From an uncultured bacterium (GTDB lineage Bacteria > Cyanobacteriota > Cyanobacteriia > Cyanobacteriales > Microcoleaceae), in NCBI GenBank assembly GCA_964609515.1, contig CAZSTZ010000002.1, positions 37,339 through 54,419 of the forward strand: 17,081 nucleotides of DNA, given 5' to 3'. This document shows positions 4,250 to 17,081 of the stretch, in pieces (the stretch's first letter is position 1; the number at the start of each line of letters is the position of its first letter). The notes below the pieces were generated by a model. The model was not told the origin of the DNA. It saw only the letters and a list, made by a program, of their open reading frames with translations, and made no database searches. The translations under genes were made by a program, and so were the position numbers.

Positions 4250-4313
4250 GAAACCAGGTTTTTCAAAAAAACCTGGTTTCTGGGTTTTTTTCAAAAAACC
4301 GGGTTTCTGGGCT
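4250..4313. repeat. Two adjacent copies of the GAAACCAGGTT.../...CCGGGTTTCTGGGCT palindromic hairpin repeat, in a divergent promoter region
   Basis: gaaaccaggtttttc aaaaaa acctggtttc, then gggtttttttcaaaaaaccgggtttctgggct. Inverted repeats read directly from the sequence. Confidence 0.5.
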
Positions 4314-4772: not shown

Positions 4773-5912
4773 ATGTCTAAAACAATTGCTATTCCCAAAG
4801 AAACCAGAATTGAAGAAACGCGAGTCGCCATTACACCAGATGGCGCTAAAAAATTAAGAGCATTGGGTTACAAGGTTAAAGTCCAAAAAAATGCAGGGAT
4901 AAAAGCTGGATTTTCTAACCCAGAATATCTGTTCAGTAACGCGGAAATTATCGAAGAAGTTCCATCTTTGTTGGCGGCAGCAAATATTGTGTTACCCTTG
5001 AAAAGACCGGCGGCAGAAATAGAAAAACAAACCATCGCTACTCTGGTTCCAGAAGCATTAATTGTAGGATTTTTAGATCCTTATTTTCAAAAGGGAAAAC
5101 ATCTACATTTTTATCAAAAACAAAAAGTAACTGCTTTTGCTTTTGAACTTTTACCAAACCTTCCCGAAACCCAGTTATTCGATCCTATGGCTCAGATGAG
5201 TCAAATTACGGGGGAGGTCGTTCTTGATGATTACATCGAGAACTATAACGAAAATCTGGAAGGCAAGAAGATTTTAATAATTGGCTTGGGAAATGTGGGT
5301 TTATCTTGTGCCAAGTATGCCTGGGAAAAAAAAGCTAAAGTTACAACAATTACTCGTAGCGATCGCTATCGAAATCTAGTCGCAAAACAAGGGGGGCGTT
5401 TCCTAAAAATTGAAGGAAATGCTGAATCGAAGAAACGAGAATTTGTGGAAAAGATACTGCTAACAAATTTTTTCGATCTAGTTGTTTGCAGTGCTAGGAT
5501 ACGCTGCCAGCTCGCACCCTTGTTAATTTCTAAATCGGCATTATTAAAATTACAAAAAAAAGTAATAATTTACGATTTAGCAGCAAGTTTGGGAGGAAAT
5601 TGCGAAGCCAGTCAGTACGGTAAAAATACTTCTTGCGGGGGAGCGGATGTGCGAAGCAAAACGGGATATCCTACCTCAAGACCGAAAGAGGCTTCCGAAC
5701 GCTATAGCAGTTGCGTAATAGAATTTTTGAAACATTTATCGCGAGATTCTGACGATTCGATAACGCAGTTGTGTTTGGAAAGCTGCGCGGTATGCAATGG
5801 CATGGTTAACCCAATTTTGGGGTTAAATGAAAATTACCAAATTAACGATGGAATTAAGTTTCGCGATCGCCTCCTTGAATGGCACTCAAACTACCTCAAA
5901 ACATGGCAATAA
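4773..5912 (+). CDS. Alanine dehydrogenase / pyridine nucleotide transhydrogenase (PntA dI-like) family protein, orphan
   Basis: 379 aa. N-terminus IAIPKETRIEETRVAITPDGAKKLRALGYKV, a GxGxxG Rossmann motif IIGLGNVG and DLAASLGGNCE (compare PntA DLAAQNGGNCE) place it in the AlaDH/PNT family. No pntAA/pntB follows. The C-terminal 90 aa are unusually Cys-rich. Confidence 0.65.
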   Translation: MSKTIAIPKETRIEETRVAITPDGAKKLRALGYKVKVQKNAGIKAGFSNPEYLFSNAEIIEEVPSLLAAANIVLPLKRPAAEIEKQTIATLVPEALIVGFLDPYFQKGKHLHFYQKQKVTAFAFELLPNLPETQLFDPMAQMSQITGEVVLDDYIENYNENLEGKKILIIGLGNVGLSCAKYAWEKKAKVTTITRSDRYRNLVAKQGGRFLKIEGNAESKKREFVEKILLTNFFDLVVCSARIRCQLAPLLISKSALLKLQKKVIIYDLAASLGGNCEASQYGKNTSCGGADVRSKTGYPTSRPKEASERYSSCVIEFLKHLSRDSDDSITQLCLESCAVCNGMVNPILGLNENYQINDGIKFRDRLLEWHSNYLKTWQ

Positions 5913-5920
5913 TTTAAAAC

Positions 5921-6868
5921 ATGACTAACAAACTCGCCAAAGCACCACAATCTTTTTTAGACAGCGCCACCTTAACAGCCCTTTTTGCTCTGATATCTGG
6001 CATCAGCATCATCGCTTTTATGCCAATCTTAACCCGATTTAGCGAAAGCGAAATTAGTCCGACAGCGACCATGTTTCATCGCGTCTGGATTGCTACTTTT
6101 TGTTTGGGATTATGGCAAGTAATCGAAAGGTTAAAACCTAAAAAATTTGGAGAAAAACTCGATGCAAAACCAATTTTTTCTGGCAAAATATGCCTATTAT
6201 TATTAGTAACAGGAATTTTTTTTGCCGTTCAACAAGTTATCTGGGCTTGGTCGATTACGGAAACTAGCATTGCCAATTCGGCACTCCTGCACAATTTAAC
6301 CCCATTTTTTACAACTTTAGGAGCCTGGATAATATTCGGTAAAAACTTCGATCGCCGATTTTATTTCGGTCTAGTTATTGCTATTACCGGAGCAAGTATT
6401 GTTGGTATCGACGATTTTTACTACGGATTTGACAAAATTCAAGGAGATATTTTAGCCTTTCTCTCTGCGTTTTTTTATGCAGGATACTTGCTGCTGGCAG
6501 AACAAGTGCGAAAGCAATTGCAAACCACAAAGGCACTGTTTTATTTCTGCGGAATTGCCAGCCTTTTTCTCTTGCCAATCTTACCTTGGAGGGAGGGAAA
6601 TATTTTCCCCACATCTGGGAATGGATGGTTAATTGCTGTAGGATTGGCTATGACTATTGTTGTCGGTCACGGACTGGCGATTTATAGTCTCAATCGACTT
6701 TCTTCGAGTCTAGTTTCTGTAACGATGTTACTCAATCCAGTGCTTAATGGTATTCTGGGTTGGCTCGTGTTTTCGGAAAGTCTCGATTTTTATAATTTAG
6801 TAGCTTTTCCGACAATTTTGCTCGGAATATATCTCGCCACTACCAGCAAATCTGCTATTAAGAAATAG
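5921..6868 (+). CDS. DMT superfamily (EamA-like) transporter, about 10 TM helices
   Basis: 315 aa and highly hydrophobic. Two EamA-like halves, each with a conserved G-rich helix (ITGASIVGID; TIVVGHGLAIYSL). Confidence 0.75.
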   Translation: MTNKLAKAPQSFLDSATLTALFALISGISIIAFMPILTRFSESEISPTATMFHRVWIATFCLGLWQVIERLKPKKFGEKLDAKPIFSGKICLLLLVTGIFFAVQQVIWAWSITETSIANSALLHNLTPFFTTLGAWIIFGKNFDRRFYFGLVIAITGASIVGIDDFYYGFDKIQGDILAFLSAFFYAGYLLLAEQVRKQLQTTKALFYFCGIASLFLLPILPWREGNIFPTSGNGWLIAVGLAMTIVVGHGLAIYSLNRLSSSLVSVTMLLNPVLNGILGWLVFSESLDFYNLVAFPTILLGIYLATTSKSAIKK

Positions 6869-6900
6869 TAAGCGATCGCCTGATAGAGTTAGTAGTTAGT

Positions 6901-6922
6901 AGGGTGCGCACCGCGCACCAAA
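6901..6922. repeat. GC-rich palindrome / tandem heptamer AGGGTGCGCACCGCGCACCAAA upstream of Uma2 copy A. Repeated at 8750-8771 upstream of copy B; degenerate copies lie downstream of each gene at 7626-7640 and 9424-9438.
   Basis: GGTGCGC and GCGCACC are reverse complements, and GCGCACC is tandemly duplicated. It stands out in an AT-rich intergenic context. Confidence 0.5.
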
Positions 6923-6945
6923 TAAATTTTTGTTAAAATAATATC

Positions 6946-6980
6946 AACCCGGTTTTTTTGAAAAACCGGGTTTCTGGGCT
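6946..6980. repeat. Palindromic hairpin repeat CCCGGTTTTTTT-G-AAAAACCGGG followed by TTTCTGGGCT (same family as 4250-4313)
   Basis: Inverted repeat and shared TTTCTGGGCT tail read directly from the sequence. Confidence 0.5.
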
Positions 6981-7000
6981 AAAGACGTAGGGAAAAAACC

Positions 7001-7621
7001 ATGACTCAAGCAATAGAAAAACCCCAACTAATGACTCTAGACGAATTTCTGGACTGGTATCCAGACGACGGGAAAATTTACGAACTACATAAAGGAGTTA
7101 TTTTTGAAATGGAACCAACTGGAACTCACCAACAAGTTATTGGTTTTCTTGTAACTAAATTTGCCGTGCAACTTGAAAATCTCCAACTTGCATACTTGCT
7201 AGTAACTCAATGCATCATCAAATCAATTAGCACGGACAATTCTGGATTCAATCCCGACGTAACAATTCTCGATAAAAACGTTTTAGAAAACGAGCCGATG
7301 TGGAAAAAACGTTCCACAATTACCAACGGAGAAACTGTCAAGTTAGCCCTTGAAGTTGTCAGCACTAATTGGCAGCATGATTATTTAATGAAACTGTTTG
7401 AATATGAAAATCTAGGAATTTATGAATATTGGATAGTTGACTATTTAGGATTAGGTGGAAGGCGATTTATTGGCAGTCCCAAACAGCCGACTATTTTTGT
7501 TTATGTAATGGTGGATGGCGAATATGAAGTAAAAACGTTTCGAGGTAGCGACAGAATCGAATCATCAATTTTTCCCGAATTAAATTTAACGGCGGAACAA
7601 ATATTTGCAGCAGGTAGTTAA
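7001..7621 (+). CDS. Uma2-family (DUF820) restriction-endonuclease-fold protein, copy A
   Basis: 206 aa. Hallmarks of cyanobacterial Uma2/DUF820 proteins: N-terminal MTLDEFLDWYPDDG...YELHKGVI, and the PD-(D/E)xK-like core NPDVTILDK...LALEVVS. Nearly identical over its 5' about 140 bp and its 3' about 415 bp to copy B at 8798-9418. Confidence 0.85.
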   Translation: MTQAIEKPQLMTLDEFLDWYPDDGKIYELHKGVIFEMEPTGTHQQVIGFLVTKFAVQLENLQLAYLLVTQCIIKSISTDNSGFNPDVTILDKNVLENEPMWKKRSTITNGETVKLALEVVSTNWQHDYLMKLFEYENLGIYEYWIVDYLGLGGRRFIGSPKQPTIFVYVMVDGEYEVKTFRGSDRIESSIFPELNLTAEQIFAAGS

Positions 7622-7675
7622 AACGTAGCACCGCGCACCAGTATAATTATTGAAGGAAAAAAAGTAGAGAATAGA

Positions 7676-8122
7676 ATGAGTCAGTCGCAGTTATTACTGC
7701 CACCCTGGAGAAGTCCAAATTTAGGAATGGGTCGGATATTTAGCCATTTTACTAACTCTGAGGGAGCTACTGGAATTACAGGAATTATTGGGGATAGTCT
7801 CGATATAAATCAGCAGGCGATCGCCACTAAACTGCAATTCGGACAAGGTTCAAATCCCTTTTATGCTAACGCTTCAGGAGATATATTTGTAACAGAACTT
7901 GACGTGGAAGCAACTGTAGGTGATTTGAATTTAATTGGTGTCTTTGGCGACAAGCAAATGTTTCTAATTCAATTCTCAGAAGAAACTGCTTTAGTCTTAA
8001 ATAAGATTAGAGTCAGACCGGTGAAAATCTCTTATAATGTATTGACATCGGGCAGCAGTATTTACACTATCCCTGGTGGCACTACGCTCGTAGGTAAATT
8101 TCTCGTAACGAGGGTTAGATAA
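7676..8122 (+). CDS. Hypothetical protein (148 aa, Gly/Ser/Thr-rich, predicted beta-rich), first gene of a two-gene cassette
   Basis: ORF of 148 aa with no family I can recognise. Its stop overlaps the start of the next gene (TAATG at 8119-8124). Sits between the two Uma2 copies. Confidence 0.5.
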   Translation: MSQSQLLLPPWRSPNLGMGRIFSHFTNSEGATGITGIIGDSLDINQQAIATKLQFGQGSNPFYANASGDIFVTELDVEATVGDLNLIGVFGDKQMFLIQFSEETALVLNKIRVRPVKISYNVLTSGSSIYTIPGGTTLVGKFLVTRVR

Positions 8123-8739
8123 TGAATAAATTAGACCTTTATCAAACTGTCGAAAATTTAGAGTCTGGCGAACTAGAAAAACAAGTTTGTGCGCTAGAAG
8201 GCGCAGTAGAAATAGTTAACTTACTCGCCTTTAAAACTGTTGAAACATTCGAGAAAGCTTCCCACAAATTTCCCATCGCCGATCGCCTTTATCGCTTTGG
8301 TTCGATTATGGTACCCCACCTAGAACAATTGCTCGAAAAAACAGAAGATTTAGAAACCCAAATTCTAGCAGCAGTCGTACTGTTAAGATTGGGTTCCCAG
8401 GTAGGAGTTGATGTTTTATTAAATGCCATCTCCCGCGACAAACAATATCCCTGTTTGGCAGCAAGCTGTTTGGCAGCAGCGGGCATTAAAATAGCAATTA
8501 ATCCTATAAGCGATCGCCTCAGAAACGCCAGTTTTGAAGAGATAGATTTAATCGTCGGTTTGCTAACTGCTTTGGAAGAATTAAACGGCGAAATACCTCC
8601 CGATATCTATCGACTTTTTACAGTTGCCGATGCCCCGTGGCAAATTAAAGCTATAATTCAAGATAGGGAATTAAGCGGCGATCGAAAGTTAGTTTTAGAC
8701 AGCTTTACGTCTAACTATGTTAGGGAGATTAACTATTAA
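8122..8739 (+). CDS. Hypothetical alpha-helical protein with HEAT/ARM-like repeats (205 aa), second gene of the cassette
   Basis: Repeated helical hairpin pattern (AAVVLLRLGSQVGVDVLLNAISRD...CLAASCLAAAGIKIAINPISDRL) resembles HEAT-like repeats. Translationally coupled to the upstream ORF. Confidence 0.5.
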   Translation: MNKLDLYQTVENLESGELEKQVCALEGAVEIVNLLAFKTVETFEKASHKFPIADRLYRFGSIMVPHLEQLLEKTEDLETQILAAVVLLRLGSQVGVDVLLNAISRDKQYPCLAASCLAAAGIKIAINPISDRLRNASFEEIDLIVGLLTALEELNGEIPPDIYRLFTVADAPWQIKAIIQDRELSGDRKLVLDSFTSNYVREINY

Positions 8740-8797
8740 CTGTCCTAGTAGGGTGCGCACCGCGCACCAAAAAAATATTTAAAAAAAGGAAAAAACC

Positions 8798-9418
8798 ATG
8801 ACTCAAGCAATAGAAAAACCCCAACTAATGACCCTAGACGAATTTCTAGCCTGGTATCCAGAAGACGGGAAAATTTACGAACTACATAAAGGAGTTATTT
8901 TTGAAATGCAACCCACAGGCACTCACCAACAAATTGCTGGCGAACTTTCTGGGGAATTGTTCTTAGAAATTCGGCGCTTACATCTTCCTTACACTATTCC
9001 CAGTCAATGCATCGTTAAGTCAATTAATACAGACAATTCTGGATTCAATCCCGACGTAACAATTCTCGATAAAAACGCTTTAGAAAACGAGCCGATGTGG
9101 AAAAAACGTTCCACAATTACCAACGGAGAAACTGTCAAGTTAGCCCTTGAAGTTGTCAGCACTAATTGGCAGCATGATTATTTAATGAAACTGTTTGAAT
9201 ATGAAAATCTAGGAATTTATGAATATTGGATAGTTGACTATTTAGGATTAGGTGGAAGGCGATTTATTGGCAGTCCCAAACAGCCGACTATTTTTGTTTA
9301 TGTAATGGTGGATGGCGAATATGAAGTAAAAACGTTTCGAGGTAGCGACAGAATCGAATCATCAATTTTTCCCGAATTAAATTTAACGGCGGAACAAATA
9401 TTTGCAGCAGGTAGTTAA
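8798..9418 (+). CDS. Uma2-family (DUF820) restriction-endonuclease-fold protein, copy B (mosaic paralog of copy A)
   Basis: 206 aa. Identical to copy A at residues 1-40 (a few substitutions) and at residues 80-206. Residues 41-79 are divergent (IAGELSGELFLEIRRLHLPYTIPS versus VIGFLVTKFAVQLENLQLAYLLVT). Confidence 0.85.
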   Translation: MTQAIEKPQLMTLDEFLAWYPEDGKIYELHKGVIFEMQPTGTHQQIAGELSGELFLEIRRLHLPYTIPSQCIVKSINTDNSGFNPDVTILDKNALENEPMWKKRSTITNGETVKLALEVVSTNWQHDYLMKLFEYENLGIYEYWIVDYLGLGGRRFIGSPKQPTIFVYVMVDGEYEVKTFRGSDRIESSIFPELNLTAEQIFAAGS

Positions 9419-9448
9419 AACGTAGCACCGCGCACCAGTATAATTATC
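9032..9448 (+). repeat. Direct repeat of about 415 bp, nearly identical to 7235-7650 (1 substitution, 1 single-nucleotide indel). It covers the 3' two-thirds of the Uma2 gene plus a 27-bp downstream tail.
   Basis: Base-by-base comparison of the two segments within the window. Confidence 0.9.
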
Positions 9449-9508
9449 CTTCCACTCCGTTCCACCCAACCTACTTTTGCCTCTTGCCTTTTACCTCTTG
9501 CCTTCTCC

Positions 9509-9579
9509 TGAGATTGCCACGGGGGGGTTAACGAAAATCGACCCAAATTAATCGGTTTCCCACCCCCCCTCGCAATGAC
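9509..9579. repeat. Half copy of the MITE-like element seen at 1022-1177. TGAGATTGCCACGG (9509-9522) and CCTCGCAATGAC (9568-9579) with the same 70-bp spacing and G7/C7 tracts.
   Basis: Exact match to the right-hand arms of the element at 1108-1177. Confidence 0.55.
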
Positions 9580-9698
9580 ATATTGCCAACCTCCATCGCC
9601 CACCACCAACCCATCCGCTACAAACCAATCAAAACTTTTCCTCTGGCTCCCCCCTTTTTAAGGGGGGCGGGGGGGGGATCGATCCGCTACAAACCAAC

Positions 9699-12413
9699 CT
9701 ACTCATCCTCCCCAGGATTAGGATTAATCAAACCTTTCGCAGTGCCAAACAAATTAATCGGACTCTTGCCATCAGTAATCAACACGCTTTCAATACCCAG
9801 CCCCTCCAACAGTCGCGCCTGCATTTCTGGGCCGGCTTGAGCGATCGCCCTGATAGTATCCGCCCCCAAAGCCTGAACCTTCTCCCGAAACTCCGCCGCA
9901 TTCATCCCCGCCAGACGCCTCGCCTTCTCCAACTCCAAACTATCGAAAGCCTGCTTGCGCTCAATCTCCGCCTCCTGACGCGCCCTGATAATAGCCGACT
10001 CCGCCTCAAAACGGATCCGCGCCGCCTCCGCTTCCTGCTGGGCTAACATAATCGTCGCCTCCCCGCGAATTCTCGCCGTTTCTGCCTTCGCCCTCGAATC
10101 CGCGTTCGCCCTTCCAGTAGCTTCAATAGCCGCATTTTCAGCCTGCAACTCCAGTAAACTTCTGCGTTCCGTTTCTGCCGCGCTTTCATCGACAATTCCC
10201 TGCCTTTCCAAACGCGCTTTTGCCTCCTGTTCGATCCGTTTGGCATCGTTTCTGGCAGCCGCTTCTTGAGCGTCGGTGGTAATCTTTATCGCCAACTGTA
10301 CCGATTTTTGCAAGCTCTTTAAAGTCTCCTCGTCAACCGGTTCCACCGACTGAATATCGACGTTAGTAATTACCAGATTGTTAGTTCGGAAGCGAAACTC
10401 CTCCCGCAGATTTCCCCCTTCATCCAACCCGAACACCGCCTCCCGAATAATCTGCGCCGACTGGCGGTGGAACTGCTCGAAACTGACACCGGCAACAGTC
10501 CCCCGAACTTGAGAAGCGATCGCCTTGCAAGCAGTATTGACAAAATCGGGAACCTGAAACAACTTCGCCGCTTCCTCTTGGCTGTTCTTGTCAACATCAA
10601 AATACCAATTATAAGACAACCGCAACTGCAACCGGGCGTGGTCTAAAGTTTCCACCGCAAACATATCCGTCATAAAATCCGGCCCCAACAGCAAAGCCAA
10701 AGACTTAATAACGTGAGGTCTTTTCGGCACCGAACCCGACAAACTCAACACCGTCACTTCCTCTTCCGGTCCTAACATTACCAAATCTGGACCGAAGACA
10801 ACGCGAGCAGTTCTCTCTTTGTAGTTATGAACCTGCACCGCCCCATTTTGGGGAACCTGGAAAACAACCGCCCTAGTTTTATCCCGCTGGTTTGCCGGGC
10901 CCCCGTAGGGATTGCCATGCCCCCCTCGGTAGCGCCCCCTGTCCGCCAAGGGGTCGATTTTTTTCATCAATATTTCTTCAACCGCCGGCGGAATTTCCTT
11001 TTCCCAAAGTTCCTGGTAAGGAGTTAATAAATATGCTTGCGGTCCGCGAATTAAACTTAGTTCTCCCGTCTGGATGTTGCGCACATAAATTCCCTCGTTT
11101 TGGTCTAAAGGAATCGCTTCGCGTTTTTCCACAACCTCCACTTCCAACGGAGGCACATAATCCCGAGGACCGTAAATCGTCCACAAATCCCCCGGTTGTC
11201 GTCGCACAGCGTTAGTACCCTCGCCCTCGGTAAACCGTTCCGTTGCCCGCAGCAACAGAGCTTCGCGCTCTCCCAGAACGTAAACATCTCGAATGCCTGT
11301 TTGGTAGTTATACTCGGGTTCTAAATCTAAACCTAGCTCTAGTTCTTGGAATACATCGTCAAAGGTTTCGCTATTTTCTTCGCTACCCTCGATATACTCT
11401 CCCGGATGCAAGAAAAAGGAAGTGCGACCTTGACGAATTTCTCGCCTGCCCAATTGGGGTTTGCCGTTGTCATCCACCGGGTTAACGATAACGCACCATT
11501 GGCGATCGCTTAAAGTAACTACTCCCACTTCGCCGATGACTTCTTCATAAACATCGGGTATGTGAGTTTCCGCATCTTCGTAAGTTACCAACCACTCGTC
11601 TCCCGCCTTGCGATACCGACCGAATATATCCGTAAAAGTTCGCCTCGCCTGTAAATGTAATGCTTTTTGTTCCGTTAAAACGTAAGCTTCTACTACTACT
11701 CCCACTTCTTCTTCCACGCCCGGCAAATAGGCCCCCACTTCTCTTACCAACCATTCCTCGCCAGCGATGCGAGGGTTGCCCTGGCGGTCTATACAGTCTC
11801 GCCGCGCCTGCAAGCATAACGCCTGGTTCGGTTTGATAATCGTCGCGTTTACTACTTGTACTACTTCAACTTCAATTCGAGGAATATAAGTTCCCGGACC
11901 CTCAAACAGCCATTCGTCTCCCGCCAAACGTTCCATAGGTTCGGCTTCCGTTGCCGTAGTTTCTGTAGCGAGGGGTGCCGTCGTCGTTCTAGTGGTTTCT
12001 GTAAAATCGCGAATCGCCCTCAAACGGAGAGCTTGATTTCTTTTTACAACCTGTAGCTCTTTAATATCTCCTAATAGTTCTTCCCCGGGATATAGTGGGA
12101 AAGGTTCTTGCTCGAAACGATATTCGCGATCGCCATAATGCAACCTCACCTGACCGTAAGCGTCCGCCAGCGGTTCTCCCCGACTGTCGCGCATCACTGG
12201 GTTAGCAATTAAACAATAATGCCTCGGCGGCACTATTATCATCTGTTGGGGTGCTAAAACTAGACGTTCGCCCTGACCTAAAGTTACCGTCCGCGGACCT
12301 ACTTCTAGTCTGGTGACTCCACTATTATTATCTAAAATGTGGATATACTGTTGGGGTTTGAGTCTAATTACTCCCCCAGTTTCTAATGATTCCTGAGTTT
12401 GACCTTTATTCAT
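9699..12413 (-). CDS. MVP: Major vault protein (MVP) homolog, full length (904 aa from the ATG at 12411-12413)
   Basis: Very strong similarity to eukaryotic MVP along its whole length. N-terminus IRLKPQQYIHILDNNSGVTRLEVGPRTV...MIIVPPRHYCLIANPV versus human [28 protein letters not shown]...MVTVPPRHYCTVANPV. Repeat domains GDEWLFEGPGTYIPRIEVEVV, GEEWLVREVGAYLP and GDEWLVTYEDAETHIPDVYEEV. Shoulder region RAVVFQVPQNGAVQVHNYKERTARVVFGPDLVMLGPEE...TVLSLSGSVPKRPH...LLLGPDF, and the cap-helix coiled coil. The track ORF starts at 12464, but the ATG at 12413 is preceded by GAGGAGGTG 7 nt upstream, a strong SD. The stop is at 9699-9701. Confidence 0.95.
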   Translation of the reverse strand: MNKGQTQESLETGGVIRLKPQQYIHILDNNSGVTRLEVGPRTVTLGQGERLVLAPQQMIIVPPRHYCLIANPVMRDSRGEPLADAYGQVRLHYGDREYRFEQEPFPLYPGEELLGDIKELQVVKRNQALRLRAIRDFTETTRTTTAPLATETTATEAEPMERLAGDEWLFEGPGTYIPRIEVEVVQVVNATIIKPNQALCLQARRDCIDRQGNPRIAGEEWLVREVGAYLPGVEEEVGVVVEAYVLTEQKALHLQARRTFTDIFGRYRKAGDEWLVTYEDAETHIPDVYEEVIGEVGVVTLSDRQWCVIVNPVDDNGKPQLGRREIRQGRTSFFLHPGEYIEGSEENSETFDDVFQELELGLDLEPEYNYQTGIRDVYVLGEREALLLRATERFTEGEGTNAVRRQPGDLWTIYGPRDYVPPLEVEVVEKREAIPLDQNEGIYVRNIQTGELSLIRGPQAYLLTPYQELWEKEIPPAVEEILMKKIDPLADRGRYRGGHGNPYGGPANQRDKTRAVVFQVPQNGAVQVHNYKERTARVVFGPDLVMLGPEEEVTVLSLSGSVPKRPHVIKSLALLLGPDFMTDMFAVETLDHARLQLRLSYNWYFDVDKNSQEEAAKLFQVPDFVNTACKAIASQVRGTVAGVSFEQFHRQSAQIIREAVFGLDEGGNLREEFRFRTNNLVITNVDIQSVEPVDEETLKSLQKSVQLAIKITTDAQEAAARNDAKRIEQEAKARLERQGIVDESAAETERRSLLELQAENAAIEATGRANADSRAKAETARIRGEATIMLAQQEAEAARIRFEAESAIIRARQEAEIERKQAFDSLELEKARRLAGMNAAEFREKVQALGADTIRAIAQAGPEMQARLLEGLGIESVLITDGKSPINLFGTAKGLINPNPGEDE

Positions 12414-12545
12414 ACCGCACCTCCTCAAATAATTAATAATTAACAATTGCTCTTTTCTCAGCAATAATTCATCTGCTACGTCTGTTGCAAAATTTGCTGT
12501 TAACTAAGCTTTTTATCGCGCTCCGCGATTACTACGAACAATTCA

Positions 12546-15083
12546 TTACTGCCTCCACAACTTAATAGTATTGTCTTTGCTGCCGCTGGCAATAGTCTTA
12601 CCATCGGGACTAAAAGCAACGGTATAAACCTCATCAGTATGTCCCTCTAAGGTACTAAATAACTCCCCAGTTTCTAAATCCCAAATTTTCACCGTATTGT
12701 CCTTGCTGCCGCTAGCAATAAACTTACCATCCGGGCTAATATCCACGTCAATAATATCATTAGAATGCCCTTCTAAAGTATTAATTAATTCTCCAGTTTC
12801 TAAATCCCAAATTTTAAGAGTATCGTCATAACTGCCGCTGACTAATTTAGTAGAGTCGGGACTAATAGCTAAAGTTCTAACGCCTTCAGTATGACCTGCC
12901 AAAGAATGAATTAAACCCCCCGTTTGTAAATTAACAACTTTAATAGTAGTATCCTCGCTGCCCGTGGCAAAAGTTTCACCGTCAGGAGCGATCGCCACCG
13001 CATAAATAATATTAAAATGATAGAAAAGATTGTAAATAAGAAAACCCGTATCCGTATCCCAAATTCTAACTACGGTATCCCCGCTACCGGTAATAGCTGT
13101 TCTGCCATCAGGACTAACAGCAACGGACCAAACGGGACCGTAATGGTCTAAAGAATACAAAAACTGTTCTGTTTCTAAATCCCAAATAAGTAGCCGCCAA
13201 TCGTAAGTAGCGGCAGCCAGTTTTTGCCCGTTATTAACATTAACATCAAAAGACCAAATAGGAGAACCATCGCCAAAAAAAGTTTTGCTAGATTCGCCGA
13301 TGGGCAATTCTAAAACTTCAAGAGAATTATTTTCACCGTTGCTAATAATTAATTCACCTTGAGGACTAAAAACAACATTTCTGACTATGCCATAATTGTC
13401 GCTTAAGTCTTCAACAGTGGCATTTTTCCAATTAAGAGCCTCTTGGCACTCTTGCAAGACGTTTTGACTTTCAGCAAATTTACTCGAAGATTCGGGGACT
13501 TCTGCCGCTTCTTCGATGCAGCGATCGTAATTTCTATTCTGATAAAAACCATCAATTGTAGCAAATTCTCTCGCCTCTCGTGCTAACAGTTCTTCTCGTT
13601 GTTTTTCTAACCTTACTCTTTCCTGTAAATTTTGCCATTGAATGTAAAGATAAAGAGCAGCTATTAAAGCTAAAATTCCCGTAATGCTAACTCCCAACAA
13701 CCACCATTCTAAAGAACGTTTTTTTCTACTTCTTCGCTGCCGGAGTGTTTGAGAATTATTAGAATTATTAGAATTATTAGAATTATTAATCGCTGCCGGT
13801 TGCGACTTTAACCTCATCGTCGCTGCTTCCCGCTCTCTGGCACTAGGTAAGTTATAAATAAACTGAGATTCCTGCAAATCTTGAAGAAACTTCTTCAACT
13901 TTATAGAGAAAGATTTAGGCGCCAATCGTTCTTCAATTAAAGCGCTATCTTCATCGGAAACTCCGAGAACTTGCTGCAAGCGAATTAACTCTTCCCGAGT
14001 TTCTTTAGTAAAAGGATATCCATTATTCATCTCCTTTAATAAAGCTTGTTCGTATCGTTCCCCCTTTTCTCGATATTTTCGGTAAGGATTTAAAATCTCA
14101 TCTTCGATCGCCTCCGTCTCTTCTATGTCTATTTCTAAACTATCTCGTAATGCGTCTAAAATTTCTCTACCCACCACAGAAATATCTCCCCGGTGACTCG
14201 AAAGACGCACTACTTCTTGTCGATAGGTCATTTTTTTATCTATCGCTAATTGGGGAGACTCTTTTAATTTTTTTAGCTCCGCTAAGACTTCGGCAGCAGA
14301 CTGGTAGCGATCGTGGTAATCGTAGCAAACCATCTTATCTAAAATCTCTGCAAACCCCGGAGAACATACCGCTAAATGACGCCAAACAATCTCTCGTTTG
14401 TGCCCTTTTTTATAATCTTTTAGTTTTGATAATTCCTCCGGCGGCAAACCCGTTAATGCCTGAATGCCAATCATCCCCAAAGCATAAATATCGCTGTTTA
14501 ACTGGGGATTGTATTCAAACTGTTCGATCGGCATATATTCAATAGTGCCAATTCTCACCGTTCGCGGACTTTGACCTTGACGACCGTTCAGTTCTTTAAC
14601 CGCACCAAAATCGATTAAAACTAACTTGTCATCCGTATCCCGTCTGATTAAATTGCTTGGCTTAATATCTCGATGAATTACCCCATTTCCGTGAACGAAA
14701 ACTAAAATTTCTAAAACCTCGTTGAAAATCTCAATTACTTGGTCTTCCGACAGCGGTTTACCTGCTATTATCTCCTTTTCTAATGGGGTTCCCGTCACAT
14801 AAGATTCAACTAAGAAAAATTCTTTATTTTCTTCAAAATAAGCGTAAAGTCTAGGGATTTGATTGTGTTGAGAAAGCTTTTCTAAAGTCTGGGCTTCTTG
14901 TTGAAATCGACGTCTAATAATCTCAATTAAACGCGGGTCGAAATTTCCCGGTTGTAAGTGTTTTACAAAACAGCGCGGTTCTCCAGGCCGACGAGTATCT
15001 TTAGCCAGATAAGTTCTGCCAAATTCGGCTGATTCTATGACTTCAAGGATTTGATAACGTCCGTCTAAAAGTCTGCTAACCAT
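12546..15083 (-). CDS. Receptor-like Ser/Thr protein kinase: N-terminal Hanks-type kinase domain, a single TM helix, a coiled coil, and a C-terminal WD40 beta-propeller (about 7 repeats)
   Basis: 845 aa. Kinase motifs GRTYLAKD...VKHL, HRDIKPSNLI and DFGAVK. A basic stretch RRSRKKRS precedes the TM segment LEWWLLGVSITGILALIAALYLYI. C-terminal repeats of ...GH...VxxVAxSPDGxxxASGSxDxTIKxWDLETG... (WD40). Same strand as MVP and immediately upstream of it. Confidence 0.9.
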   Translation of the reverse strand: MVSRLLDGRYQILEVIESAEFGRTYLAKDTRRPGEPRCFVKHLQPGNFDPRLIEIIRRRFQQEAQTLEKLSQHNQIPRLYAYFEENKEFFLVESYVTGTPLEKEIIAGKPLSEDQVIEIFNEVLEILVFVHGNGVIHRDIKPSNLIRRDTDDKLVLIDFGAVKELNGRQGQSPRTVRIGTIEYMPIEQFEYNPQLNSDIYALGMIGIQALTGLPPEELSKLKDYKKGHKREIVWRHLAVCSPGFAEILDKMVCYDYHDRYQSAAEVLAELKKLKESPQLAIDKKMTYRQEVVRLSSHRGDISVVGREILDALRDSLEIDIEETEAIEDEILNPYRKYREKGERYEQALLKEMNNGYPFTKETREELIRLQQVLGVSDEDSALIEERLAPKSFSIKLKKFLQDLQESQFIYNLPSAREREAATMRLKSQPAAINNSNNSNNSNNSQTLRQRRSRKKRSLEWWLLGVSITGILALIAALYLYIQWQNLQERVRLEKQREELLAREAREFATIDGFYQNRNYDRCIEEAAEVPESSSKFAESQNVLQECQEALNWKNATVEDLSDNYGIVRNVVFSPQGELIISNGENNSLEVLELPIGESSKTFFGDGSPIWSFDVNVNNGQKLAAATYDWRLLIWDLETEQFLYSLDHYGPVWSVAVSPDGRTAITGSGDTVVRIWDTDTGFLIYNLFYHFNIIYAVAIAPDGETFATGSEDTTIKVVNLQTGGLIHSLAGHTEGVRTLAISPDSTKLVSGSYDDTLKIWDLETGELINTLEGHSNDIIDVDISPDGKFIASGSKDNTVKIWDLETGELFSTLEGHTDEVYTVAFSPDGKTIASGSKDNTIKLWRQ
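13752..13787. repeat. 9-bp in-frame microsatellite (AGAATTATT)x4 inside the kinase gene. It encodes (NNS)4 just N-terminal to the TM segment.
   Basis: Four perfect tandem 9-mers read directly from the sequence. The protein shows NNSNNSNNSNNS. Confidence 0.85.
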
Positions 15084-15105: not shown

Positions 15106-15175
15106 AGTTGTTGGGAATTGCTAATTGCTAATTGCTAATTGCTAATTGTTAATTGCTAATTGTTAATTGTTAATT
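15106..15175. repeat. Heptamer tandem array (AATTGCT/AATTGTT) x10 (STRR-like), 23 bp upstream of the kinase start codon
   Basis: aattgct x4, aattgtt, aattgct, aattgtt x3, aattagc read directly. Same family as the repeats at 2287-2331. Confidence 0.85.
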
Positions 15176-15519
15176 GTTAATTAGCCATTACCTATCCAAC
15201 GGCTTTTCAGTAATCAAACGAGCCCCGCCCTCTCGGGTAAAATAACTCCACGCCCACTGAATCATCACTATCAATTTATTATCAAATTCGATGACGTAGT
15301 AGATGTGGACAAATACCCACGAAAAAAAAGAATGGAAGAATGGGAGCCGCGACGTTTTAACTCGCGGAGGGAATTATACTCAGGCGGTTTCAACCGCCGT
15401 GGTTTAAAAGGGTGGGAGGATTTTTCCTCCCTAATCTTCTACCGCCTTGGCCTTACTAACGACGGTGACATATTGCATTTGTCTTTCGTCCAGGCAATTA
15501 TGAACTCATGCTTTTAGGC

Positions 15520-15790
15520 TGTACGCATAAAAGTTAAACTCTCATTTCTGAGGTAATCTTCGCCTTGGCAAAGTTATCGGTCGGTACTTTCTTAGTTGCA
15601 CTGTTTTACCCCTCGTAGAACTGTTTAACAACTAAGTTTTAGCAGCCCAGAACTGGCGAGGCATTCTAAGGTAAGAGCTTCAACGCTTACCGATAACGTA
15701 GTCCTCTAGGGACTTAGCTCTTCTTCAGCATATCTAAATTAACGAGGCACGAAGCCCCGCTCTTCAGAGCGGGGTGCTGACGGCTTGGTT
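15520..15790. other. Highly structured non-coding segment of about 270 bp (multiple nested stems) that replaces the 3' end of the ndh gene. Candidate small RNA or decayed MITE/insertion remnant.
   Basis: No credible ORF on either strand. Stems: gttatcggt (15575-15583) with accgataac (15681-15689); cttagttg with caactaag; ggtaagagc with gcttacc; ccccgctc-ttca-gagcgggg (15755-15774). The ndh reading frame ends inside the last hairpin. Confidence 0.3.
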
Positions 15791-16892: not shown

Positions 16893-16923
16893 AAGAGTTT
16901 TTTTATGTTGTAGTTAATCTTTT

Positions 16924-17081
16924 TAGTTAATCTTTGTAGGTTGTGCGGACCTCCGTGGAAGCCAACAAAATATGTTTAGTTAATCTTTGTAGGTTGTGCG
17001 GACCTCCGTGGAAGCCAACAAAATATGTTTAGTTAATCTTTGTAGGTTGTGCGGACCTCCGTGGAACCCAACAAAATACGT
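16924..17081. repeat. 53-bp tandem repeat (TAGTTAATCTTTGTAGGTTGTGCGGACCTCCGTGGAAGCCAACAAAATATGTT), at least 3 copies, running off the window end. A 12-bp partial unit lies at 16909-16920. Located upstream of the ndh start.
   Basis: Copies begin at 16924, 16977 and 17030, with period exactly 53. Copies 1 and 2 are identical. Copy 3 has 2 substitutions. Confidence 0.85.

Follow-up and report, generated by a model that had tools for sequence, protein, structure and literature searches.

Tandem Uma2 genes with divergent centres and identical 3′ ends frame a two-gene cassette in a variable cyanobacterial locus

Two Uma2 copies around a two-gene cassette

We analysed a stretch of 17,081 nucleotides (nt) from an uncultured cyanobacterium (contig CAZSTZ010000002.1 of assembly GCA_964609515.1), called the window throughout, in which two genes of the Uma2 family (DUF820, COG4636) stand in tandem with two further genes, orf148 and orf205, between them. 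An earlier note, made from the letters of the DNA alone, had described this arrangement as two co-oriented Uma2 genes framing a two-gene cassette, and the list of open reading frames (ORFs) of the window confirms it: both Uma2 ORFs are intact, point in the same direction and encode 206 amino acids (aa) each. The two copies form a direct repeat at a fixed offset of 1,797 bp (1.8 kb). The features that carry the analysis are as follows.

7001 to 7621, plus strand: Uma2 copy A, 206 aa, with an A-type centre; the PD-(D/E)XK residues D86, E118 and K131 are present; assigned by PF05685, an AlphaFold2 (AF2) model and PADLOC PDC-S03 (E 1e-90)
8798 to 9418, plus strand: Uma2 copy B, 206 aa, with a B-type centre; compared with the gene at the orthologous locus in L011, its 5′ 135 nt are 98% and its centre is 91% identical
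7136 to 7216, plus strand: divergent block of copy A, aa 46-72, VIGFLVTKFAVQLENLQLAYLLVTQCI; 49.4% nt identity to copy B and 75-86% to other A-type genes
8933 to 9013, plus strand: divergent block of copy B, aa 46-72, IAGELSGELFLEIRRLHLPYTIPSQCI
7282 to 7650, plus strand: perfect direct repeat, first copy, 369 nt, made of the 3′ 340 nt of Uma2 A and 29 nt downstream
9079 to 9447, plus strand: perfect direct repeat, second copy, 369 nt, which holds a shortened motif (9422-9437) and a promoter-like site (9415-9444)
7676 to 8122, plus strand: orf148, a small protein with a predicted ADP-ribosyltransferase (ART)-superfamily fold; candidate toxin
8122 to 8739, plus strand: orf205, a HEAT-like alpha-repeat protein; ATGA overlap with orf148, with predicted translational coupling; candidate immunity or partner protein

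Identity between the two copies changes abruptly from segment to segment, a pattern that cannot be due to chance. Over 145 nt at the 5′ end (6991-7135, a 10-nt leader followed by gene nt 1-135) the copies are 94.5% identical. Identity falls to 49.4% over gene nt 136-216 (7136-7216), rises to 89.2% between 7217 and 7281, and reaches 100% over the 369 nt from 7282 to 7650, the last 29 of which lie beyond the stop codon. Near-identical 5′ ends and identical 3′ ends, both proposed before, thus hold with these figures. The two proteins are 88% identical and 19 of their 25 differences fall within aa 46-69. This dense block comprises ∼24 codons, or 27 with the transition to aa 72, and its two forms share 30% protein identity with conserved hydrophobic positions, which means that they are not unrelated sequences. 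The earlier description of some 40 central codons as completely different was therefore right in placing the divergence at one spot and wrong about its size and about the lack of relationship. The 5′ differences are few and are also linked to type (D18/D22/E38 versus E22/Q38). The repeat unit exceeds the genes, running from 6897 to 7650 around copy A and from 8746 to 9447 around copy B. A 52-bp extra segment with a hairpin at 6946-6972, found in unit A only, is the sole length difference between the two units.

Both copies are clear members of the Uma2 family. In a Pfam search each scored 99 bits against PF05685 (cut-off 27) and spanned profile positions 2-171 of 172, and both matched the PADLOC candidate defence system PDC-S03 with E values of ∼1e-90. 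The AF2 model of copy A (predicted local distance difference test score, pLDDT, 87) matches the DUF820 structures 6okh, 3ot2, 9y1l and 1wdj with a Foldseek probability of 1.00. The fold is that of PD-(D/E)XK nucleases with the PD-EXX-K arrangement: P85-D86, E118 and K131 are invariant in 62 homologues, and D86, E118 and K131, kept in both copies, correspond to the PD-EXX-K site of Feder and Bujnicki (PMC551604). Several crystal structures of Uma2 proteins exist. The papers found describe Uma2 as a predicted or putative endonuclease only, and neither the literature searched nor the solved structures found show a demonstrated activity or function for any Uma2 protein. A glycine-rich insertion of ∼12 residues, GLGGRRFIGSPKQ, follows the conserved EYWIVD strand at aa 150-162 of both copies (7448-7486 and 9245-9283); the solved homologue 9y1l lacks this subfamily insertion, which the model renders with low confidence (pLDDT <50 for residues 153-159).

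The arrangement recurs outside this assembly. Ten metagenome contigs (JGI 33000407xx and SRR74281xx) that match the window at 99.5-100% identity contain the cassette flanked by Uma2 sequence on at least one side and in some cases on both; the arrangement is therefore not an artefact of one assembly. Several of the JGI contigs stop inside the repeat, as is usual for short-read assemblies.

The central block and its history

Do the ends and the centre of these genes share one history? We computed identities segment by segment among seven genes: the two copies of the window, the B-type genes of loci L011 and L012, the A-type genes of L016 and L017, and the gene of L013. Three patterns emerged: (i) the 3′ 340 nt group by lineage, with the two window copies 100% identical to each other (94% to L013), the genes of L011 and L017 98% identical and those of L012 and L016 94% identical; (ii) the centres group by type, A-type centres being 75-86% and B-type centres 88-91% identical among themselves, versus 44-51% between A and B; and (iii) the 5′ 135 nt are mixed, the closest pairs being copy B and the L011 gene (98%), copy A and the A-type gene of L013 (96%), and the genes of L012 and L016 (96%). 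The two window copies thus agree at every one of the last 340 nt of the gene; over this stretch the nearest relative matches them at 94%, and the genes at the orthologous locus at 84-86%.

The same exchange is seen in other lineages. The 120 closest homologues include eight pairs, drawn from different lineages, whose flanks agree at 91-97% and in which the block has been swapped within the same borders, running from aa 46/48 to 68/72; four of these pairs come from Planktothrix or close relatives. The forms found in the pairs read 'GE(L/I)..EL.(L/V)EI(R/W)RL' for B and 'FL..(K/E)(L/F).. (Q/E)I' for the A-like form. When flanks were clustered at ≥90% identity, both forms occurred in 12 of the 23 multi-member clusters. 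Mean identity of the B form is 67% within its type versus 44% between types, and column entropy peaks in the block at 1.49 bits versus 0.8-1.0 elsewhere. Within a single species, P. agardhii, many strains have the non-B form and strain NO976 has the B form.

By these alignments, the block is a discrete, old, two-state module: the flanks of the gene track lineage and the block tracks type. Its variation amounts to a choice among a few conserved types, chiefly the B form and the A-like forms, that recur with the same boundaries across genera, and not to hypervariability. The proposal of a variable specificity segment shaped by gene conversion or domain shuffling is consequently sustained in part. 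The variation is localised, the block has its own history and the ends have been shared recently, by duplication or gene conversion; the idea of a hypervariable cassette, for which an alignment of Uma2 genes had been suggested as a check, gave way to a few conserved types with recurrent boundaries. The same comparison bears on whether the pair consists of ancient paralogues or of products of recent conversion, and the answer is both, with ancient centres and recent ends.

Where does the block lie in the protein? It spans three quarters of a predicted long helix (aa 41-61), which follows the invariant PTGxH43, together with a loop and the strand at aa 65-68. The helically spaced positions 46, 50, 54, 58 and 61 are hydrophobic in both forms (V/I, L/L, F/L, L/I and L/L), and most of the intervening positions switch character (F49E, V51S, T52G, K53E, Q57E, E59R and N60R). 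On the model, the packing face of the helix would thus be kept and its surface face switched, and the block could act as a surface specificity determinant.

The cassette, its island and the locus in relatives

The insert between the repeat units (7651-8745) holds orf148 and orf205, neither of which has a significant match to a Pfam, NCBIfam or PADLOC family. Profile searches with orf148 yielded nothing or marginal matches in Pfam, NCBIfam, PADLOC and PDB, with a single weak match to Tox-ART-HYD1 (E 0.13), and fold comparison alone was informative: the predicted fold of orf148 is of the ART type. R20, H24 and E102 are nearly invariant among its homologues and S101, R112, S128 and R146 are invariant, and these residues are candidates for a catalytic triad (H-Y-E, R-S-E or R-E-S). 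As a single sequence, orf205 gave a weak match to HEAT_2. Its family counts 279 cluster representatives at E≤1e-3, and the family profile matches alphaRep/HEAT-repeat PDB chains with E values from 1.5e-23 to 1e-6 over 3-5 stretches, which identifies a HEAT-repeat protein. An orf205 homologue is always paired with an orf148 homologue, and an overlap of 1-4 nt between the two genes is kept in three contexts. By these features, orf148 and orf205 most likely form a toxin–immunity module similar to toxin–antitoxin (TA) modules.

The pair is found in other surroundings. In the genome that carries L012, a different contig (L014) contains the same pair, 84% identical at the nt level, and the limits of similarity fall precisely at window positions 7670 and 8739; there is no Uma2 gene within the 10 kb fetched on either side. 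In GCA_949128025.1 the pair lies between an SbcC-like gene and Phd/restriction–modification (RM) genes, near NACHT and PemK genes, and L015 holds a degraded copy. These contexts support a cassette that moves as a unit between TA and defence islands. The earlier note had seen a cargo module delimited by recombination; a movable unit with sharp boundaries is indeed what the comparison suggests, and the Uma2 repeats drop out as a requirement for its mobility because the cassette also occurs without Uma2 flanks. In L014 (8431-15657), orf148 and orf205 directly follow a PDDEXK_2/DUF4351 gene (an Rpn-like recombination-promoting nuclease) and are followed by a 248-aa gene, two double-GTPase conflict-system genes (DO-GTPase1/2) and an 800-aa gene. 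The window and L014 are alike in that the cassette comes after a gene of the PD-(D/E)XK fold.

Four related loci (L011, L012, L016 and L017) share with the window a conserved left flank (ApbA, 4HBT, PG_binding, TerB, DUF815 and Tmemb_14 genes), a conserved right flank (a major vault protein, MVP, homologue, a kinase-WD40 gene and an NDH-2-like gene), or both. They are 82-93% identical to the window at the nt level and therefore belong to other species. The gene orders are Tmemb_14, HicAB, Uma2 (B type), NUDIX and a distant Uma2 in L011; Tmemb_14, Uma2 (B type), a ParE-like TA module, MVP and kinase in L012; Tmemb_14, Uma2 (A type) and a remnant of a second Uma2 3′ end in L016; and Tmemb_14, a CdiA_C toxin with its partner or immunity gene, Uma2 (A type) and NUDIX in L017. 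All genes of the island are co-oriented. Because the content differs between conserved flanks, the Uma2 site is a hot spot for TA-type modules. The remnant in L016, 185 nt after the intact gene and at the end of the contig, repeats the final ∼55 nt of a Uma2 gene together with the downstream sequence; it is the stump of a former second Uma2 copy. A tblastn search of all 37 fetched loci with copy A revealed no second close tandem Uma2 pair. In the window, alanine-dehydrogenase/PNT-like and EamA transporter genes (4773-6868) lie between Tmemb_14 and the Uma2 array. They are not at that position in L011, L012, L016 or L017, where the island begins right after Tmemb_14, and they represent a further rearrangement of the island.

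A search of metagenome contigs with copy A returned solely distant Uma2 loci (38-68% identity), with no population variants among them. In viral contigs the cassette was missing and all Uma2 genes were distant, and plasmids carried Uma2 at 66-74% identity only; there is thus no evidence of a phage or plasmid vehicle.

Origin of the arrangement and its parallels

What made this structure? We give a probability of about 0.6 to the following explanation as a whole: the locus would be a variable island of TA/defence type that combines a two-form Uma2 tandem, gene ends acting as portable homology, and a self-contained cargo module. The host would be a filamentous cyanobacterium, probably a member of the Microcoleaceae or Oscillatoriales, and the island would begin downstream of its conserved Tmemb_14 gene. 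The Uma2 subfamily found here exists in at least two old forms that differ only in the block of ∼24-27 codons, the rest of the gene following the host lineage. The 3′ 369 nt would have been kept identical, or recently made so, by duplication or gene conversion (concerted evolution), with slightly lineage-specific 5′ ends and a centre (49% nt identity) that escapes homogenisation. The conserved ends would then serve as portable homology at which RecA-type recombination could re-assort the block, duplicate or delete copies and carry adjoining cargo, and no dedicated recombinase would be needed. Loss of the cassette through a crossover in the 3′ repeat would leave one gene, of A type; if the crossover fell in the 5′ homology, the one gene left would be of B type. 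Single-copy A-type and B-type states both exist at the locus in relatives.

The identity of the ends points to recent events: 369 nt without a difference, set against 6-16% divergence from orthologues, imply recent duplication or gene conversion. Because the 5′ differences are linked to type, homogenisation would have acted mainly at the 3′ end. Variants in populations point the same way. Contig L003 has nt 51 and 53 of copy B in the A state, and in JGI samples both copies carry L117V, both having L117 here; these variants are consistent with A-to-B conversion and ongoing exchange. The structure is best explained, both in its origin and in its possible undoing, by homologous recombination across the conserved ends of the Uma2 genes, a mechanism and a direction that we infer from sequence comparison. 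How the locus is built, the mosaic descent of its Uma2 genes, the repeated occurrence of both forms and the cassette's presence at another site are direct observations.

Several points weigh against this explanation. The conversion variants come from short-read contigs that cross the repeat, where assemblers can mix copies. Neither an excised circle nor a deletion variant nor a cassette-free allele of the same species was found. The two forms may be alleles of one locus or paralogues that coexist in most genomes, and since the cassette occurs elsewhere without Uma2 flanks its position between the copies may be incidental. Any role for the Uma2 block is conjecture.

The pair may have originated as an old A–B tandem under concerted evolution, through recent import of an allele with its cassette, or by duplication followed by patch conversion. 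Recent import is a less probable alternative to the explanation above. DNA of a related strain with the A form and the cassette would have integrated by homologous recombination with a resident B-type gene, through a Campbell-type single crossover in the 5′ homology or through homology-facilitated insertion, and this single event would have produced the direct repeat. On this view the 3′ ends would be identical because they come from same-species alleles, and not through later conversion. Alleles at this locus in relatives differ essentially in the block alone, which implies that same-species alleles would already be near-identical at their ends. Furthermore, the upstream region of copy A, hairpin included, is orthologous to that of the resident gene of L011, the similarity of copy B to the same resident (98% at the 5′ end and 91% in the centre) is as expected from a 5′ crossover, and the cassette is present elsewhere in related genomes. 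Yet the donor, a 1.8-kb circle or fragment, is hypothetical and no donor was found. In addition, the 3′ signature is shared with an A-type gene at another locus (L013, 94%), yet the 29 nt beyond the stop are similar to the motif found downstream of the B-type residents, a combination that argues for more than one event.

Alternatively, tandem duplication could have been followed by a short patch conversion of one centre from a third, dispersed paralogue, with independent insertion of the cassette and a block that is a tolerant helix without special function. Uma2 is highly multi-copy in cyanobacteria and donors are abundant (PMC551604, PMC9403480), and the entropy of the block, the highest in the family, is what a tolerant segment would show. 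Nevertheless, we find this account unlikely: the type-linked 5′ differences show that lineage differences are not limited to the centre, 12 of 23 flank clusters, spread across genera, contain both states with unchanged boundaries, and the conservation of the B form (67% within versus 44% between types) is unexpected under neutral drift.

Could short repeats around the genes be sites of a dedicated recombination system? The repeat units contain the following elements.

6899 to 6920, plus strand: 22-nt hairpin motif GTAGGGTGCGCACCGCGCACCA, 'upstream type', which opens repeat unit A; stem 6903-6909/6913-6919 (a 7-bp stem in the fold)
8748 to 8769, plus strand: second copy of the 22-nt hairpin motif GTAGGGTGCGCACCGCGCACCA, which opens repeat unit B
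6946 to 6972, no strand assigned: hairpin with a perfect 12-bp stem, AACCCGGTTTTT..AAAAACCGGGTT, inside the 52-bp segment upstream of copy A only; second copy at 4252-4278
7618 to 7647, plus strand: promoter-like site TTAAAA-18-TATAAT, which spans the Uma2 A stop and the shortened motif GTAGCACCGCGCACCA (7625-7640), 29 nt upstream of orf148

The 12-mer core of the 22-nt motif occurs four times in the window (0.03 expected), always at the repeat units. A shortened form follows each Uma2 stop codon, and there the hairpin stem is lost from the fold. The motif also stands at junctions of the orthologous island, with four copies in L011 and an inverted pair in L016, and it is present in L017 and, degenerated, in L012; none was found in the rest of the ∼324 kb of fetched loci, so that all copies lie in one island. 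Compared with repetitive extragenic palindromic (REP) elements and REPINs within these ∼324 kb, it has a palindromic core and a single inverted doublet, that of L016 (1691-1931), where two inverted copies 56 nt apart follow the intact A-type Uma2 gene in a REPIN-like manner.

A site-specific cassette system, in which the 22-nt motifs would be recombination sites comparable to integron attC or REP/REPIN and the recombinase would be encoded elsewhere, could account for the confinement of the motif to island junctions (four in the window, four in L011, the inverted pair in L016) and for the co-orientation of all island genes. It is nonetheless very improbable. The larger window ORFs scanned and the annotated syntenic genes of L011 and L012 include no integrase (no IntI), RAYT or transposase; the motif does not border the cassette copies in L014, L015 and L028; duplication of the whole unit alone accounts for two of the four motif copies in the window; and the shortened downstream form has no hairpin. 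The integron-like interpretation of the motif was rejected for the lack of a recombinase, of the motif at other cassette copies and of the hairpin downstream. Moreover, attC sites are imperfect palindromes of 60-140 bp at the 3′ end of every cassette, and the motif is 22 nt long with a 7-bp stem. Nor does the locus look like a composite transposon or insertion sequence: the segment 6,800-9,700 contains no transposase, the repeats are coding sequence in direct orientation, and no inverted terminal repeats turned up.

Other roles for these elements were considered. The 22-nt motif was dropped as a terminator, since a terminator scan did not call it and terminator-like sites are no commoner in the region than in shuffled sequences. 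Rfam gave no match in 6,800-9,700. The promoter-like site, which lies within the 29 nt after each Uma2 stop, is a consensus match only (10 of 12 positions). The hairpin AACCCGGTTTTT..AAAAACCGGGTT is a dispersed repeat of intergenic DNA, present in the window (6946-6972 and 4252-4278), L011, L013, L015 and L017, and in L011 and L013 it is also found upstream of Uma2 genes; it looks like a small mobile or terminator-type repeat.

Finally, an assembly artefact, in which one chromosomal Uma2 gene was misjoined through the 369-bp repeat to a second copy plus cassette from a separate 1.8-kb circle or another strain, is scarcely credible: short-read graphs alone cannot tell X-R-C-R-Y from X-R-Y plus a circle (R-C), and the ends of contig L001 (1,914 bp = 1,797 + 117) overlap as in a cycle, but contig L034, which matches window positions 8574-9661 at 99.6%, reads from orf205 across all of copy B, its own centre included, and on into the unique DNA beyond it, the longest contig given in JGI records is 2,293 bp both for a full-length A-type gene (P0147) and for an orf148 product (P0143), which probably share one contig as far as can be told from the records alone, and a 1.8-kb circle would have no replication function. 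Contig L001 was also rejected as evidence for an excised circle, a tandem repeat yielding the same assembly graph as a circle.

How does the locus compare with known systems? Uma2 accounts for >2% of the genes of Gloeobacter violaceus and is among the most expanded cyanobacterial families (PMC551604). Cassettes of Uma2 paralogues are known, adjacent co-oriented paralogues being typical (Feder & Bujnicki 2005, PMC551604; Makarova et al. 2009, PMC2701414), and tandem duplication and a recombinogenic role of Uma2 were proposed earlier (PMC551604). The family is TA-associated (PMC4963859) and has been considered a candidate solo toxin or recombinogenic selfish nuclease (PMC551604, PMC2701414, PMC4963859, PMC9403480). 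Given this expansion, these paralogue cassettes and this TA association, a tandem pair in a TA island is expected, and the window shares with the known cassettes the PF05685 domain, the PD-EXX-K residues and adjacent co-oriented copies. The Uma2 literature searched contained neither an internal two-state block that has recurrent boundaries and re-assorts against lineage-tracking flanks nor two Uma2 copies, identical over 369 nt, on either side of a foreign two-gene module.

Other parallels are partial. As in the shuffling of target-recognition domains of type I HsdS, conserved segments surround a variable block and homologous recombination yields mosaics with sharp, recurrent boundaries. However, there is no relation in sequence or fold, the Uma2 block is a helix and strand of the nuclease core and not a DNA-recognition domain, and the Uma2 locus has neither inverted-repeat switching nor a recombinase. 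As in polymorphic-toxin loci (contact-dependent inhibition, CDI, and Rhs), the homology of a conserved gene would serve as a landing pad, the cargo would be of the toxin–immunity kind and tandem partial or complete copies are left behind; in relatives, the island also contains toxin and immunity genes of the CdiA_C type. Unlike CDI/Rhs remnants, both Uma2 copies are complete and, by their sequence, apparently functional rather than orphans, their variable part is internal and not C-terminal, and the cargo is unfused. Concerted evolution of tufA and tufB likewise maintains long identical stretches while orthologues differ (here by 6-16%) and produces variants shared by both copies; in the Uma2 pair, by contrast, homogenisation halts at an internal block that is 49% identical and common to several genera. 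Lastly, orf148 and orf205 recall ART-fold TA modules (DarTG, RES-Xre, Tre/Tri and Tne2/Tni2) in the small size and predicted ART fold of orf148, in the overlapping partner gene and in their occurrence in TA/defence islands in three contexts. They differ from these modules in that orf148 has no significant sequence match to an ART family and its partner is a HEAT-repeat protein, not a macrodomain or Xre protein. In its behaviour the locus resembles HsdS shuffling, polymorphic-toxin displacement and concerted evolution with a protected segment, and it belongs to none of those families.

A more far-reaching proposal, distinctly doubtful at this stage, is that the block, on the main helix of the nuclease, is a balanced, trans-species, two-state determinant of compatibility or specificity (for example towards a partner, a dimer mate, an inhibitor or a DNA feature) and that the gene ends are recombinase-free 'handles' for the exchange of block and cargo. 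If so, Uma2 expansions would be a polymorphic defence or toxin system and a scaffold for homology-driven cassette exchange. A block that flips between two states, repeatedly and across many genera, while the rest remains >90% identical marks the part of the protein on which selection or recombination acts. The locus would illustrate how the ends of a multi-copy gene can shuffle TA/defence modules with no dedicated recombinase, which bears on the turnover of defence islands. If the block is neutral and the cassette incidental, the locus would reflect ordinary island plasticity.

The remainder of the window holds further features. A 921-aa bacterial homologue of the major vault protein is encoded on the minus strand (9699-12464; Pfam Vault E 2e-67, MVP_shoulder E 5e-51, and Vault_2/3/4), adjoined by an 845-aa Ser/Thr kinase fused to WD40 repeats (12546-15083, minus strand); the two genes are kept as a pair in L012, with 898 aa and 838 aa. 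At 15553-15781 on the minus strand lies a full-length HEARO RNA (Rfam RF02033, 119.9 bits versus a gathering cut-off of 83, model positions 1-211 of 211), the RNA that accompanies IscB/HNH endonuclease elements. On the minus strand it is not followed by an IscB-like ORF; the kinase-WD40 gene comes next. Between copy B and the vault-protein gene (9480-9690), G7/C7 runs form inverted repeats (CACGGGGGGGTTAACG...CCCACCCCCCCTCG and CCCCCCTTTTTAAGGGGGGCGGGGGGGG). Tandem repeats include one of 7/14 nt at 9474-9504, the heptamer AATTGCT repeated 9.6 times at 15116-15182 and also matched in L015, a 53-bp unit present three times with 99% identity at the end of the window (16922-17078), and, inside the kinase-WD40 gene (13752-13788), 4.1 copies of AGAATTATT.

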